From Alphaproteobacteria bacterium (lineage in GTDB: Bacteria; Pseudomonadota; Alphaproteobacteria; GCA-2746255), in the NCBI GenBank assembly GCA_965249135.1, contig OZ252220.1:960001-1024000 (forward strand): a stretch of 64,000 nucleotides of DNA. Direction: 5' to 3'. The position numbers and the translations under genes are program-made. The notes under the pieces are model-generated. The model was not told where the DNA came from. It ran no database searches and saw nothing but the letters and a program-made list of their open reading frames with translations. Shown in pieces: positions 2,552 through 32,696 of this stretch (its first letter is position 1; every line of letters starts with the position of its first letter).

Positions 2552-2919
2552 CCTTTGCCAGCAAGAGAAGAATCGCCCGAAGGGGCCTTCTACTTAAAGT
2601 TAAAAAAGTAATAGCAAATAAAACTTATCGGCTATCTTCTCTATATACTTACGACTTAAAGTGTTTTCTCTTACCCTTAACGGACTACACTGTTCGGATT
2701 AACCATACATCCGTCAAGGCCTTTGTCTTTCTTCTTCCTCTTCTCTTACTCTCTTCTTGAGGATGCGCCGCGGCGCAGGCCCGGCCGCCGGTCGCAAACG
2801 CCGAGCCCCGCGCCAGCAGTTCCCCTTGCATGCGCCCCGACAAGCGGGCAGATTTTTGTCTTGCGTTGCGCCCGGCGATAAGCGAAACAACGCGGCCGAT
2901 CTTGAGATTTGATGTGGAG

Positions 2920-3393
2920 ATGCTGGCGATGGCACGGAGAGCATCCGTTGCAAACACGGTGATTTCCCGTGGCGAGGAGCGCGCCGACGCGACGCCGTCC
3001 TTGAAGGCCGCGACGCTTTCGACGGATTACTTCGTCGAGAAGGACGGCCTTACCTTCGCCGGTCTGCACGTGCTGCTCGACTTCTGGGGCTGCAGGAAAC
3101 TGGACGAAATGAAGGCGGTAGAACGCGCCCTTCGCGCAGCCGTCGTGGCGGCCGGTGCGACCCTTCTTGACCTCAGCCTCCATCGCTTCACGTCGAGCGG
3201 CGGCATTTCCGGCGTCGCCGTTCTTGCCGAATCCCACATCAGCATCCATACTTGGCCGGAACGCGGTTACGCGGCGCTCGACATCTTCATGTGCGGCGGC
3301 TGCGACCCTTACAAGGCGGTCCCCGTACTTCGCGAGGCCTTCCAGCCGGACAATGTGCAGCTGCACGAACAGCGGCGGGGACTCACGGTTTGA
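2920..3393 (+). CDS. speD: S-adenosylmethionine decarboxylase proenzyme
   Basis: GGISGVAVLAESHISIHTWPE self-cleavage motif and ALDIFMCG; start approximate. Confidence 0.92.
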   Translation: MLAMARRASVANTVISRGEERADATPSLKAATLSTDYFVEKDGLTFAGLHVLLDFWGCRKLDEMKAVERALRAAVVAAGATLLDLSLHRFTSSGGISGVAVLAESHISIHTWPERGYAALDIFMCGGCDPYKAVPVLREAFQPDNVQLHEQRRGLTV

Positions 3394-4238
3394 CGGGCAA
3401 GTGGTTCGAAGAAACGCTCCATCCGGACTTCCACCAGCGGCTGAAGATCTCCGACGTTCTCCACCACGAAAAGACGGATTACCAGGGCCTCCTCATCTTC
3501 GAGAACTCCGCACTCGGCCGGGTGCTGGCGCTGGACGGCGTCGTCCAGACGACGGAGGCCGACGAGTTCTTCTACCACGAGATGCTGACCCATCCCGCCA
3601 TCCTGGCCCATGGCGAGGCGAAGCGCGTCCTCATCATCGGCGGCGGCGACGGCGGCGCGCTCGAAGAAGCGCTGAAGCACCCGATCGAGAAGGCGACGGT
3701 CATCGAGATCGACCCCGCCGTCGTCGAACTTTCGAAGAAATACCTGCCGTCGATTTCCGCCGGCGCCTTCGACGATCCGCGCACCGAACTGATCATCTGG
3801 GACGGCACGAAGTTCGTCGCCACGACGGAAGAACGCTTCGATGTCATCCTCGTCGATTCGACGGATCCTGTCGGCCCGGCGATGGTCCTCTTCCAGGAAG
3901 AGTTCTATGCGAACTGCAAGCGCTGCCTCACCGAGCGGGGAATCCTGATCACCCAAAGCGGCGTTCCCTTCCTCCAGGCCGCCGAAGCGCGCAGCACCAA
4001 CCGCCATTTCCGGGCGCTGTTTGCGGACCACAGCTTCTACCTGGTGCCGGTGCCAAGCTATGTCGGCGGCTTCATGACGCTCGGCTGGGCAAGCCTCTCG
4101 GAGGCAAACCGTGCCGTCTCCCGGGATGAGATCGAGCGCCGTTACGCGGCCGCCCAGATCGCGACCCGCTACTACAATCCGGACATCCACCTTGCCGCCT
4201 TCGCGCTCCCCAACTATATCCGTGAGTTGATGGGCTAA
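3390..4238 (+). CDS. speE: Polyamine aminopropyltransferase (spermidine synthase)
   Basis: LDGVVQTTEADEFFYHEML, VLIIGGGDGG, DSTDPVGP; TTG start overlaps the speD stop. Confidence 0.93.
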   Translation: MTGKWFEETLHPDFHQRLKISDVLHHEKTDYQGLLIFENSALGRVLALDGVVQTTEADEFFYHEMLTHPAILAHGEAKRVLIIGGGDGGALEEALKHPIEKATVIEIDPAVVELSKKYLPSISAGAFDDPRTELIIWDGTKFVATTEERFDVILVDSTDPVGPAMVLFQEEFYANCKRCLTERGILITQSGVPFLQAAEARSTNRHFRALFADHSFYLVPVPSYVGGFMTLGWASLSEANRAVSRDEIERRYAAAQIATRYYNPDIHLAAFALPNYIRELMG

Positions 4239-4264
4239 GCCCGCCTCTTTCCCTTAAAGCAAAA

Positions 4265-5116
4265 ATGGCCCGCAAAACGAACATGGCAGCAACCACCGAA
4301 CGGCAAGACCCTCTCCCCGGCATCCGCGCCGTCCTTGCGGTCGCCTCCGCCAAGGGCGGCGTCGGCAAATCGACGACCGCCGTCAATCTGGCGGTCGGCC
4401 TGAGCGGACGGGGCAAACGGGTGGCGCTGCTGGATGCCGACGTCTATGGGCCCTCGGTGCCCCGGCTGCTCGGCCTCCGGGGCCAGCCCACCACCCTTGC
4501 GGACGGGCGGCTCAAGCCGATGGTGAACCACGGCGTCAGCTGCATGTCGATCGGTTTCCTGGTCGAGGAGGCGACGCCGATGATCTGGCGCGGCGCCATG
4601 GTGATGGGGGCCATCGAGAACCTGATCAAGGACGTCGCCTGGGGCGAGCTCGACGTGCTGGTGCTTGATCTGCCGCCCGGCACTGGCGATGCCCAACTCA
4701 GCATCACCCAGCGCATCCCCTTGACCGGTGCCATCATCGTGTCTACGCCCCAGGACATCGCCCTTATCGATTCGCGAAAGGGGATCGCCATGTTCGAAAA
4801 AGTGAACGTGCCGATCTTCGGCCTCGTCGAGAACATGAGCACTTTCGTTTGTCCAGGCTGCGGGGAGCGTTCCGACATCTTCGGTCACGGCGGCGTGCGC
4901 GAAGTGGCCATCGAGCTTGGCATCGGGTTCCTCGGCGAAATTCCCCTTGAGGTTTCGATTCGCGAGGCCTCGGACGCCGGCACCCCGATCGTGGCCCACG
5001 CGCCGGAAAGCGCAGCGGCCGCCTGCTATGGGCGCATCCTCGATTCGCTCATCGAGAAGATCGATGCAAGCTTAGGCGATGGCGAGCGCTTGGCCCCGCG
5101 CATCGTCGTAGAGTAA
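4265..5116 (+). CDS. apbC: Mrp/ApbC (NBP35) Fe-S cluster carrier ATPase
   Basis: AKGGVGKST Walker A, DADVYGPS, DLPPGTGD, ENMS-x-F-x-CPGC. Confidence 0.92.
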   Translation: MARKTNMAATTERQDPLPGIRAVLAVASAKGGVGKSTTAVNLAVGLSGRGKRVALLDADVYGPSVPRLLGLRGQPTTLADGRLKPMVNHGVSCMSIGFLVEEATPMIWRGAMVMGAIENLIKDVAWGELDVLVLDLPPGTGDAQLSITQRIPLTGAIIVSTPQDIALIDSRKGIAMFEKVNVPIFGLVENMSTFVCPGCGERSDIFGHGGVREVAIELGIGFLGEIPLEVSIREASDAGTPIVAHAPESAAAACYGRILDSLIEKIDASLGDGERLAPRIVVE

Positions 5117-29951: not shown

Positions 29952-31324
29952 ATGGTTCGGATCCTCCCGGCGGCGCTTGGACTCTTCCTTCTGTTCCTCC
30001 CCGTCTTCCTCCTTGCCCAGGACAGGACGCAGCCAAGCGAGCCGCCTGAGGCGGTTCAAGAACTGCTAGGCCAGTTGTTTACAGCCACCCCACGCCTTCG
30101 TAATGAGGCGCTCGAGGCGCTCAAGCAACGGGGCAAGACGGACGTGGTGCCCGCCTTGATCCAGGCCCTGCGTTTCGTTCCCGACGAAGAGGCCATCAAC
30201 GCAACCCTGGAAGCACTGGTCGGCGAACGGTCCGGCACGAAGTGGCCCGACTGGATGTTGTGGCAGGAGGCCCATCCCGAGATCGAGCCCTTCGCCGGCT
30301 TCGATGCGTTCAAGGCCGAGGTCATGGCCACCATCGATGAGAACTTCCGCCTCTTTCTCAGACCCGGCATCAAGCACGACATACGTCTCGAAGAAATCGT
30401 CTGGAGCGGTGTCCGCAAGGATGGGATCCCGACCTTGATCAACCTCACCCATACCGGCGCGGCGGAGGCCGGATACTTAGACGACGACGAGTTGGTCTTC
30501 GGTGTCGAGATCAACGGCGACGCCCGTGCCTATCCCTTGCGTATCCTCGACTGGCACGAAATGTTCAACGACGTGGTTGGCGCGTGCCCGTGGCGCGTGC
30601 CTATTGCACGCTCTGTGGCTCCGGCATCCTCTACGAGACCCTTCTTCCTACCCGGGCGGAACCCTTCATCTTCGGATCGTCGGGCTTCCTCTACCGGTCG
30701 AACAAGTTGATGTACGACGACCAGACCCATTCGCTCTGGAACCAGTTCACGGGCCGTCCGGTCGTCGGCCCCCTCACCGGCTCCGGGATCGAGCTCAAGG
30801 TGCGGCCGGTGGCGATCACCAACTGGAAGGACTGGTGGCGACGCCACCCAAAGACCAAGGTCCTGTCGCTGGACACCGGATACGACCGCGACTACACGCC
30901 CGGACGCCCCTACGGCGCGTACTTCGACAGCCCCGATCCGATGTTCCCTGCCCTCGTCCCGGACAAGCGGTTGCAGCCCAAAGACTATGTCTTCGCCCTG
31001 CGTGCCGGCGGCCACGAAAAAGCATGGCCGTTGACCGCCTTCGAAGATGCCACGGTGATCAACGATTCCGTGGGCCCGCTCGACGTCGTGTTGATCGGCG
31101 ACGCCGCCACCCGGACCGTCCGCGCTTACGGCGCCGACGACCGCGACTTTGCGGCAGTCGCGGACCAGCCGGACCGCGTCATCGCCGACGGCGAAACCTG
31201 GAAGGTGGAGGAGGATGCGTTGGTCGGGCCTCGGGGACAACGGCTTGAGCGCCTGGCGGGTCACATTGCTTATTGGTTCGCATGGCGGGGATTTAAGCCC
31301 GAGGCACCGCTCTACGGCGACTGA
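29952..31324 (+). pseudogene. DUF3179 family protein with HEAT-like N-terminus, frameshift near 30580
   Basis: KDGIP, ARAYPLRILDWHEMFND, then YCTLCGSG, SGFLYRSNKLMYD-QT-SLW-Q, YWFAW in the next frame. Confidence 0.82.
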
Positions 31325-31648
31325 GGTGTGCCGGTCCCTTCGCCAAGTTAAAACCAGGGGTCAAGATCCCCTTGGGGTGGGATCCGCGCTTCGGTCAAAG
31401 GCCGCAGACGATGGTCGTCAGCCGTTGGGCAGAGTCCCTTTCAAAGTTCCGGTCTGGTTAACAATTCATTAATGAATGCAACCTACCGTTGTGAGTAGGC
31501 CCCACAAAACAACTCGCAGGCACGGAGAGGGCTTGTGAGCTTGTCGTGGGCGGATCGGGGCGCTTGTCCATTCGGTTTGGCAAACTCCGCACACACGGCG
31601 TCGCCTTCAAGTACGGGGACACGTTCTTAAACTCCCTCTCCAGGGACC

Positions 31649-31741
31649 ATGGAAATGTCAGCCAGCAGCAATCCACAGCAACAGCAGCAACGGCAACTCC
31701 AGCAGCCCCAGCAGCAGCAGCCCCAGCAGCAGCAGGAATAG
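31649..31741 (+). CDS. Gln-rich 30-aa peptide MEMSASSNPQQQQQRQLQQPQQQQPQQQQE (candidate leader peptide)
   Basis: AGGGA RBS-like site, ATG, 16 Gln codons (CAG and CAA), TAG; too short for the ORF track. Confidence 0.6.
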   Translation: MEMSASSNPQQQQQRQLQQPQQQQPQQQQE

Positions 31742-31875
31742 GCTTCGCGGCGGAAACCAGAGCGGCAGGGGCCGACCTTAGGATAAGCGGCGACGCTTTC
31801 CCGCGACCGAGAACAGAAACGTCTGGATGAAGACTTAAGCGGATGCCTTTTCCCTAAGGGGCATTCACGCGTTCG

Positions 31876-31901
31876 CGCCGCTGCACCGGCGGCGTTTTTT
31901 T
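31876..31901 (+). terminator. Intrinsic terminator upstream of Anbu gene
   Basis: cgccgct-gcacc-ggcggcg stem followed by T7. Confidence 0.75.
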
Positions 31902-31955
31902 GCTTTCCTGGCGCGTCCGGATGCCCCTTTACTCTGCCGCGGGTGTGAGCCTTCG

Positions 31956-32696
31956 ATGACCTATTGTTTGGGAATTGCGACGTGCGAGGGCCTCATCTGT
32001 CTGGCCGATGGCCGCGTGACGTCGGGCGACGAAGTCTCCATCGCGCGCAAGGCGTCCCTCCACGGGCCCGCCGGCCGGCAGGTCTGCGTCATGACGTCCG
32101 GTTTGCGTTCGCTGCGCGACAAGACGATTGCCTATTTCGAGCAGGCATTCTGCGACGAGACCGCCGCCGACATGCACGCGGTGCTCGCGATCTATGCGCA
32201 GGGCTTAAGACGCGCGGCGGAAGAAGACGGCGACGCGCTCAAGGCATCGGCGCTTTCCTTCGATCTTCATACGATCATCGCCGGGCAGATGACGGACGAT
32301 GCGCAACCAACCCTGTTTCTGGTTTACCCGGAGGGCAACTGGATCGAGGTGACGAAGCGCACGCCCTACATCGCGATCGGCGCCACGGCTTACGGCAAGG
32401 CGATCCTCGACCGCACGCTTAGCTTCGACACGCCGCTCATGCTGGCACTACAAATCGCTTACCTTTCCTTCGATTCCACCCGGGTCAGCACGGCCGCGGT
32501 GGGCTTTCCCCTCGACATGCTGACCTTCGCCCATGACCGGCAATGGCGGGCGATGACGCTGGAGCAGGACGACGTCGGCGGCATGCGGCAATGGTGGAAC
32601 GATCACATCAAGGAATTGACGATCCGGATGTCGGCCGGGCCATGGGCGGAGCATCTGCTGGCGGACCCATATAAAAAAGGTGCACCCGCCCCTTAA
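31956..32696 (+). CDS. Anbu proteasome-type Ntn peptidase
   Basis: MTYC-G N-terminus (Thr1), Asp17, Lys31, LVYPEGNWIE, PY--IG---YGK-ILDR, SFDST--S---VG-P-D. Confidence 0.85.
   Translation: MTYCLGIATCEGLICLADGRVTSGDEVSIARKASLHGPAGRQVCVMTSGLRSLRDKTIAYFEQAFCDETAADMHAVLAIYAQGLRRAAEEDGDALKASALSFDLHTIIAGQMTDDAQPTLFLVYPEGNWIEVTKRTPYIAIGATAYGKAILDRTLSFDTPLMLALQIAYLSFDSTRVSTAAVGFPLDMLTFAHDRQWRAMTLEQDDVGGMRQWWNDHIKELTIRMSAGPWAEHLLADPYKKGAPAP

Follow-up and report, generated by a model that had tools for sequence, protein, structure and literature searches.

What is the role of a short open reading frame (ORF) made up largely of glutamine (Gln) codons that stands directly before the gene for a proteasome homologue in an alphaproteobacterial genome? 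The locus lies in a stretch of 64,000 nucleotides (nt) from Alphaproteobacteria bacterium (GenBank assembly GCA_965249135.1, contig OZ252220.1, positions 960,001 to 1,024,000), here called the window, and coordinates are those of the window unless a relative's locus is named. The homologue is Anbu (ancestral beta subunit), and an intrinsic terminator separates it from the small ORF (Table 1). An earlier note on this DNA took the arrangement to be a ribosome-based glutamine sensor that controls Anbu, and gave as its alternative a poly-Gln peptide that is itself a product connected with Anbu; the data presented here fit the alternative better than the sensor. We conclude that the ORF is probably a real small-protein gene, the shortest member of a Gln-rich family, whose product would be a partner or client of Anbu, and that the terminator, or a hairpin in relatives, would serve to uncouple the expression of the two genes and not to sense glutamine.

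Read from the first of two in-frame ATG codons, the ORF runs from 31649 to 31741 on the forward strand and its 30 codons translate as MEMSASSNPQQQQQRQLQQPQQQQPQQQQE, with 16 Gln codons (13 CAG and 3 CAA) among the final 21. The ribosome-binding site and the short frame rich in mixed CAG and CAA codons on which the earlier note was built are therefore present; its 30 codons from 31649 can indeed be read, but the start that is kept among relatives is the second ATG, at 31655, which gives 28 codons and is preceded by a Shine-Dalgarno (SD) sequence 8 nt upstream in all six loci compared. The Gln content of the window ORF is 57%. For comparison, 3.1% of the codons in 761 long ORFs of this genome are Gln, and 30% of those Gln codons are CAA. 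The genome, which is 98.75% complete, consists of one contig of 2,118,282 bases with 60% G+C, and a six-frame scan of its entire length identified the poly-Gln ORF as the sole 20-codon segment with at least 10 Gln (16, the runner-up having 9). Matches to a (CAR)x10 pattern, with up to 3 mismatches allowed, are likewise confined to the ORF; in the genome of relative L013 all 64 of 64 matches to this pattern fall at a single locus that adjoins Anbu. Tandem Repeats Finder (TRF) detects a perfect, in-frame 15-nt tandem duplication at 31700–31735. Among contigs of one sample (X1–X4), records in X1, X2 and X4 span the repeat with the same 74-letter spacing as the window, and no length variant was seen in them; this is probably the source sample, so the records are not independent.

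Comparisons with other Anbu loci show that the small ORF is not peculiar to the window. The relatives' loci encoding Anbu homologues comprise 80 from species genomes and 80 from metagenomes (L013–L172), and 148 of them have at least 300 nt of upstream sequence. When Gln-rich ORFs were defined by at least 9 Gln in 20 codons, within 900 nt of Anbu, they were found in 10 of the 148 loci, four times on the Anbu strand (L094, L095, L096 and L013) and six times on the opposite strand. The four co-directional cases are among the nearest relatives with upstream sequence, whose Anbu proteins share 73% (L093), 68% (L094, L095 and L096) and 66% (L013) identity with that of the window. The earlier note had suggested a search for Gln-rich short ORFs upstream of orthologues, and its positive outcome in these nearest relatives makes the ORF a conserved, Anbu-linked feature and not a product of chance.

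In three of the co-directional loci the poly-Gln ORF is intact and immediately precedes Anbu in the same orientation, with 96 codons of which 68 are Gln in L094, 99 with 74 Gln in L095 and 94 with 70 Gln in L096 (∼71–75% Gln); in L013 the matching ORF is broken by a 10-N assembly gap. A QQRQ(I)LQQ motif near the N-terminus, recognised by comparison, is common to the window ORF and the co-directional poly-Gln ORFs. The A+T-rich poly-Gln ORFs have C at 78–84% of first codon positions, A at 81–89% of second positions and a roughly 50:50 mixture of A and G at third positions. Differences between L094 and L095 number 18, 11 and 40 at codon positions 1, 2 and 3, respectively, and a single in-frame indel of 15 nt distinguishes L095 from L096. 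These codon-position patterns indicate that selection acts on the Gln reading frame. The closest relative by Anbu identity, L093, keeps the leader, SD and start, and the N-terminal residues of its ORF are common to the window ORF, but its 28 residues include just 2 Gln. The peptides end in QQE, DKK or QKQK. Pfam assigns no family to the window and L093 peptides at E ≤ 10 or to the L094 and L095 proteins at E ≤ 1, a protein homologue search with the L094 poly-Gln protein gave nothing at E ≤ 0.001, probably owing to low complexity, and an ESM Atlas search with a poly-Gln query gave no usable match.

The co-directional relatives also share a hairpin of 16 pairs, located ∼16 nt after the stop codon of the poly-Gln ORF. 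Every pair is preserved in each of 4 sequences, and at 5 of the 16 there are one-sided changes that preserve G-U pairing, which points to a structure in the + strand RNA.

Several other features of these loci were seen. In L095 a glutaminase gene (3989–4906, − strand; Pfam E-value 2e-111) lies convergent with Anbu and ∼900 nt downstream of it; it is missing at that position in L013, and L096 has an ORF of equal length at 2892–3809 (−), Pfam having been run on L095 alone. In L093 an ORF of the insertion-sequence (IS) transposase type (286–1146, +; 286 residues, called by length) ends just upstream of the truncated leader. Long minus-strand ORFs run across the repeat in L013, L095 and L096; antisense coding was rejected since the window has no counterpart, and such frames are expected because CAG/CAA repeats contain no stops in any frame.

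The six Gln-rich ORFs on the opposite strand (L023, L031, L046, L100, L110 and L146) are divergent from Anbu, at a distance of 82–275 nt, and encode proteins of 67–97 residues with 29–40% Gln. They have the marks of ordinary genes. A GGAG-type SD precedes each ATG by 5–9 nt. Differences again concentrate at the third codon position, with 4/4/26 between L110 and L031, 12/10/38 between L110 and L100, and 36/28/59 between L046 and L146, and 22 alignment columns are invariant among the divergent proteins. These proteins are built of an 11-residue repeat of the type LQQAQRQEIQQ, which TRF detects as a 33-nt period in L110 (1.9 copies). The same 33-nt period is the best-scoring one in the L095 poly-Gln ORF (score 208, 7.9 copies), whereas the window ORF shows a period of 15 instead. 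A motif of QRQ, a hydrophobic residue and L is also common to the poly-Gln and divergent forms. Since the profile comparison of the two groups, considered below, is uninformative, their common descent is suggested by period, motif, position and the Anbu tree. The window ORF falls within the family when this is delimited by a Gln content of at least 29% and a place adjoining Anbu of the clade described next.

In a tree of 157 rows (LG+G4) the 11 Anbu proteins with a Gln-rich neighbour, that of the window included, form one exclusive clade, with a support of 98 in the Shimodaira-Hasegawa-like approximate likelihood ratio test (SH-aLRT); long branches meet inside this clade. It was recovered again, with SH-aLRT support of 97, under the site-heterogeneous LG+C20 model in a tree of 42 rows that consisted of the 11 clade rows, every fifth of the remainder and two outgroups. 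A first tree of 47 rows did not resolve the relation of the poly-Gln clade to three Sneathiella-type rows. Within the clade the small gene is co-directional with Anbu in 5 members, among them the window, and divergent in 6, and in those 6 it cannot be an Anbu leader peptide. Between this whole Anbu subfamily and the canonical Anbu of its class lies a very long branch (3.98).

Outside the Gln-neighbour clade the same position is occupied by a different gene. Among loci with at least 700 nt of upstream sequence (within L014–L172), 117 of 139 have a divergent Phasin_2 gene 191–1090 nt from Anbu, examples being L056 (2044–2715, −), L015 (2147–2683, −) and L029 (2120–2710, −), and the sister clades with a phasin neighbour include Azospirillum, Rhodovibrio, Pelagibius and Kiloniellaceae. 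The pairing of phasin and Anbu is a strong, conserved one. A Phasin_2 gene stands beside Anbu in none of the Gln-neighbour loci, and nine other loci carry unrelated upstream genes. The Phasin_2 profile (PF09361) has no match at E ≤ 1 in 7 Gln-rich proteins, and three phasins have no tblastn match in the Gln-neighbour loci. The phasin gene of the window genome itself lies ∼260 kb away. As a rule, then, the neighbour of Anbu in this subfamily encodes a small, helical protein of low complexity. In the intergenic regions of phasin-Anbu loci (L015, L029, L099, L014 and L024), spurious small ORFs repeat the peptides CAVQH, CAVHNK, CALQH or FVQC. This recurrence may point to a DNA motif common to these regions, possibly a site through which the phasin promoter is regulated.

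We propose that the Gln-rich genes encode a family of small repeat proteins, of 28 to 99 residues and 29–75% Gln with an 11-residue (33-nt) repeat, which adjoin one monophyletic branch of ‘solo’ Anbu homologues whose sister branches carry a phasin gene. Our best guess is that the small protein acts as a partner or client of Anbu, as substrate, regulator or scaffold, and takes the role that phasin has in the sister clades. The data demonstrate conservation, linkage to Anbu, coding signatures and the structure of the clade; from these we infer that the ORF is translated in the window genome and that its product has a physical or enzymatic relation to Anbu. The terminator in the window, or the 16-bp hairpin in relatives, most likely lets the small gene be expressed above, or separately from, Anbu. 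A secondarily acquired regulatory role is possible in the co-directional lineage.

Several observations weigh against this proposal. The window ORF has only 28 residues, compared with 94–99 in the nearest relatives with poly-Gln, and L093, the closest of all at 73% identity, has 2 Gln; the product must then be dispensable or very plastic, and the window copy could be a remnant. L095, L096 and L013 are near-identical, so that the co-directional set effectively represents three lineages. Homology of the poly-Gln and the divergent Gln-rich proteins is not statistically supported, hhalign giving a probability of 6% for their alignments. The noncoding likeness of the window to the A+T-rich loci is weak and is seen only in local alignments at p 0.002–0.004. 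Finally, Anbu in the window is preceded at 55 nt by a strong terminator and has no recognisable promoter downstream of that terminator, as would be expected of a regulated attenuator.

A more specific form of the proposal is that the Gln-rich or poly-Gln protein is ribosomally made and a dedicated physiological client of Anbu, a nitrogen-rich, self-associating coat or reserve protein that replaces phasin and is processed or cleared by the protease homologue. We regard this as a tentative and rather unlikely reading. Because up to 74 Gln codons have to be translated, production of the protein would at the same time signal how much glutamine is available. If true, it would be the first candidate Anbu substrate, and the locus would offer a case, occurring naturally in bacteria, of poly-Gln being dealt with by a relative of the proteasome.

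Unlikely, in our judgement, is the glutamine-sensing attenuator of the earlier note, in which scarce Gln-tRNA(Gln) would slow the ribosome on the ORF, change the pairing of the RNA downstream and allow the terminator to be read through, so that Anbu is made; if correct, it would amount to a glutamine-sensing leader peptide. The order of elements is what such a model needs, with 16 clustered Gln codons followed by a strong terminator and then Anbu. The terminator, with its run of seven T residues, lies where the earlier note had placed it, 55 nt before the Anbu ATG at 31956 and 134 nt after the end of the ORF, and a consensus scan of the interval from 31902 to 31955 found no promoter-like site that could serve Anbu alone. 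Since no such site follows the terminator, Anbu may be expressed by terminator read-through in the window genome. Five loci, and L093 in addition, have retained the co-directional arrangement, the genome contains no glutaminyl-tRNA synthetase (GlnRS) over the family cut-off, and induction of Anbu under nitrogen starvation, invoked in the earlier note, is indeed reported for nitrogen-limited P. putida by Fuchs et al. 2017 (PMC5666114).

The alternative pairings on which the attenuator depends do exist, but they are no better than chance. The segments 31747–31753, just past the stop codon, and 31786–31796 can pair with the 5′ arm of the terminator, the former in a fold of the truncated transcript; the proposed 2:3 duplex has −16.7 kcal/mol and the 1:2 duplex −12.8 kcal/mol, compared with −15.6 kcal/mol for the terminator. 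When the segment upstream was replaced by 500 dinucleotide-preserving shuffles, the best duplex with the terminator 5′ arm (−20.7 kcal/mol) was equalled or bettered by 41% of them (mean −20.2 kcal/mol), and the RNA folding that the earlier note had called for gives no excess stability over shuffles for the region (z +0.45) or for the leader (z −0.01). Comparison with relatives also argues against attenuation. Between the ORF and Anbu no + strand intrinsic terminator was found in L094 or L095, and in L093 only ∼35 nt separate the two genes. The intact ORFs of relatives, with 68–74 Gln codons in 94–99, are not leader-like, L093 retains the leader without the Gln cluster, the Gln-rich gene lies on the other strand in 6 of the 11 clade members, and Anbu is not a gene of glutamine biosynthesis or uptake. 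Together these results tell against control of Anbu by a glutamine-sensing ribosome.

About as improbable, yet a serious rival given the very short window version and the loss of the Gln run in L093, is that the ORF is a decaying remnant. According to this explanation the gene was cut to 28 codons in the G+C-rich lineage of the window and L093 and has no function, the terminator marks where that gene once ended, and expression of Anbu depends on read-through or on a promoter that has escaped recognition. The shortness of the ORF next to the 94–99 codons of L094–L096 agrees with this, as does L093, which is equally short, has lost its Gln run and carries the IS-type transposase gene directly upstream. 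The module also appears to be accessory, since none of 5 same-genus genomes holds this Anbu or this DNA. Against decay, however, the frame, SD, start and 16 Gln codons of the window ORF are all intact, the perfect 15-nt duplication indicates a recent in-frame change, N-terminal residues are common to the window and L093, and the leader is conserved between them (z 11.6 against shuffles).

A regulatory RNA is less probable still. In this case the transcript, or its 3′ part with the purine-rich stretch, the hairpin with a C/U-rich loop and the terminator, would act as a small RNA (sRNA) through CU-rich loops that base-pair, in cis or in trans, with SD regions; the ORF would be secondary. The leader has several properties that such an RNA might have. 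RNAalifold predicts a leader hairpin whose 7 pairs are all preserved in each of 4 sequences (window, L094, L095 and L013), with 2 pairs changed on both sides. Its purine-rich loop GGAGAGGG complements the CU box (31632–31641) exactly, although this pairing is absent from the minimum free energy (MFE) folds. The CU box can instead form a small hairpin that covers the SD, and MFE folds pair the two in the window and in L013. Purine loop, CU box and SD are mutually complementary. The arrangement of CU box, SD, 8-nt spacer and ATG is common to 6 of 6 loci (window, L093, L094, L095, L096 and L013), and local alignment of the window leader with that of L094 exceeds shuffles (z 4.1, p 0.004). Downstream of the ORF, a block of ∼51 nt is conserved with respect to the downstream region of L095 (z 5.6, p 0.002, local alignment), the transcript would end in two hairpins and a U tail, and the post-stop hairpin of relatives has the G-U-preserving changes described above.

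These likenesses do not extend to known RNA families. A search of 31000–32300 with Rfam 15 gave 8 matches at E ≤ 10, all far under gathering (the best 19.7 bits against a threshold of 49.5), and no glutamine-riboswitch family was among them. The sub-threshold scores, which include the weak matches of the Hfq-type sRNA kind (anti-hemB 19.7 bits, mmgR 17.7 and CcsR1 12.7), reflect a generic shape of hairpin plus terminator. No second copy of the 51-nt block and no repeat of a target-like motif was found in the genome, the folds are no stabler than shuffles, and the codon-position patterns show selection on the Gln frame. A chance low-complexity repeat without biological meaning, which could appeal to the fact that CAG/CAA repeats are open in all six frames and an ORF alone proves little, is close to refuted, because the repeat is unique in two genomes, tied to one Anbu clade, preceded by a conserved SD and start, and subject to frame-specific substitution.

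Table 1. Features of the locus around the poly-Gln ORF and Anbu
Feature	Position	Strand	Description
Perfect 12-bp palindrome TTCATTAATGAA	31465..31476	.	Within an A+T-rich island downstream of DUF3179 and upstream of the conserved leader; sequence read directly
Leader hairpin	31515..31537	+	7 pairs, purine-rich loop, ACGGAGAGG; RNAalifold
CU-rich box CTCCCTCTCC, then SD (AGGGA)	31632..31646	+	SD 8 nt before ATG 31655
Poly-Gln small ORF	31655..31741	+	28 codons and stop, reads MSASSNPQQQQQRQLQQPQQQQPQQQQE; alternative in-frame start 31649
Conserved ∼51-nt block 3′ of the ORF	31810..31860	+	Purine-rich AGAACAGAAAC, then CU-rich GCCTTTTCCCT
Hairpin directly 5′ of the terminator	31841..31866	+	11 pairs, CCCU loop; MFE folds
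Intrinsic terminator	31875..31901	+	9-bp stem (7 G-C), 3-nt loop, T7; −15.6 kcal/mol
Anbu (ancestral beta subunit) proteasome homologue	31956..32696	+	246 residues; PDB Anbu matches, Pfam Proteasome

Among the remaining noncoding elements, the palindrome may be a candidate operator or promoter region. The pairing of the hairpin directly before the terminator is not kept in L094 or L095, and BLASTN of the window against the A+T-rich noncoding regions gave nothing at E ≤ 0.01. In a sigma-70 consensus scan the window and L095 yielded no site, and L094 yielded a single one, on the minus strand, where shuffles gave more; inspection by eye revealed no convincing sigma-54, sigma-32 or extracytoplasmic function (ECF) site. 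Mini-ORFs upstream within the leader were considered as features and rejected, since they are not conserved.

The identity of the downstream gene is clear from structural homologues. Its Pfam Proteasome match is weak (22.5 bits), and Anbu chains in the PDB match at E-values of 4.1e-35 to 6.8e-27, with 5loy at 4.1e-35 and 5lox at 9.2e-30 over residues 2–230; the best match is an Anbu-1 consensus design. Across an alignment of 27 relatives, M1, T2, D18 and K32 do not vary; the N-terminal Thr follows directly on Met with no propeptide, and D18 and K32 are catalytic residues of the Asp17/Lys33 type. The S1 pocket of P. aeruginosa Anbu is formed by T20, F30, T48, L52 and S55 (Fuchs et al. 2017, PMC5666114), and a phmmer alignment maps these residues on to V, A, T, R and R in the window protein. 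The two arginines, Arg51 and Arg54, are both invariant in the 27 sequences. With these residues the pocket is predicted to be basic, as the same source describes for Anbu-2.

The canonical operon, a frequent but not obligatory arrangement, comprises ATP-grasp, Alpha-E, transglutaminase and Anbu (PMC5666114). These usual partners, which the earlier note expected, are not neighbours here; a DUF3179 gene lies upstream and MsrA downstream. Neither Alpha-E (PF04168) nor CP_ATPgrasp_2 (PF14403) was found anywhere in the 98.75%-complete genome; transglutaminase was not searched for. Two ORFs that overlap in different frames make up the DUF3179 gene (29952–31324, +), namely 29952–30710 (profile positions 1–60) and 30584–31324 (profile positions 59–291); the interruption reflects a frameshift, a pseudogene or an error of sequencing. 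In the 5 same-genus genomes, neither the window Anbu nor the window DNA was found, and MsrA is present in 2 of the 5, without the window's neighbours within 1.5 kb. By the named relatives of its GluRS, the genome belongs to an uncultured alphaproteobacterium. The window genome has two GluRS-like genes (G000 C1:522850-523233 and C1:95039-95392), and its Gln-tRNA(Gln) is presumably made by the indirect, transamidation route; GatCAB was not searched for.

A literature search whose coverage left out subscription journals and supplements found no description of glutamine-sensing leader-peptide attenuation, no link between phasin and Anbu, and no glutamine-rich small protein associated with a proteasome homologue in Alphaproteobacteria; by title or abstract, nothing relevant on bacterial poly-glutamine or glutamine-rich small proteins stood among the matches listed. 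The Gln-rich small-protein family coupled to this Anbu clade is best described as new and undescribed. Finding the substrates and partners of Anbu is a key task in the view of Fuchs et al. 2017 (PMC5666114), and a small-protein gene that tracks one Anbu clade in the slot of phasin gives concrete partner or substrate candidates. Bacterial genes for proteins of 94–99 residues and ∼71–75% Gln are very unusual, and they would be a simple model of how poly-Gln is made and disposed of.

With the canonical Anbu operon the locus shares the protease component, Anbu itself, but it differs in that Alpha-E and CP_ATPgrasp_2 are missing from the genome as searched and in a predicted S1 pocket with two Arg, like the basic pocket of Anbu-2 (PMC5666114). 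Attenuators of the trp, his, leu and pheA type resemble it in their short ORF, in the cluster of codons for one amino acid and in the G+C-rich terminator before the next gene. The window, in contrast to these amino-acid operons, has pairings at chance level, and L094 and L095 yielded no terminator; the ORFs of relatives have 94–99 codons, 6 of 11 Gln-rich genes are divergent, and the downstream gene encodes a protease homologue. In resemblance only, the locus also recalls the small-ORF mRNAs of the CcsR1 type (RF02791), from whose 3′ UTR CU-motif sRNAs arise: hairpins with C/U-rich loops and then a terminator come after the small ORF. The Rfam score is 12.7 bits compared with a gathering threshold of 65.3.

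The actinobacterial proteasome operon pup-prcB-prcA contains a small-protein gene, pup, and the likeness to it is one of organisation: the gene that immediately precedes a proteasome-family gene, on the same strand, encodes a small protein of low complexity that is probably disordered or helical. Pup ends in Gly-Gly-Gln/Glu, unlike the poly-Gln peptides with their QQE, DKK or QKQK ends; nor do the window, L093, L094 and L095 peptides match Pup, and the ligase/deamidase family PF03136 was not found in the genome. The phasin-Anbu pairs differ from the locus in that the Gln-rich proteins have no Phasin_2 match, and they agree with it in having the same Anbu subfamily, the same neighbouring slot and a small helical low-complexity protein that is often encoded divergently.

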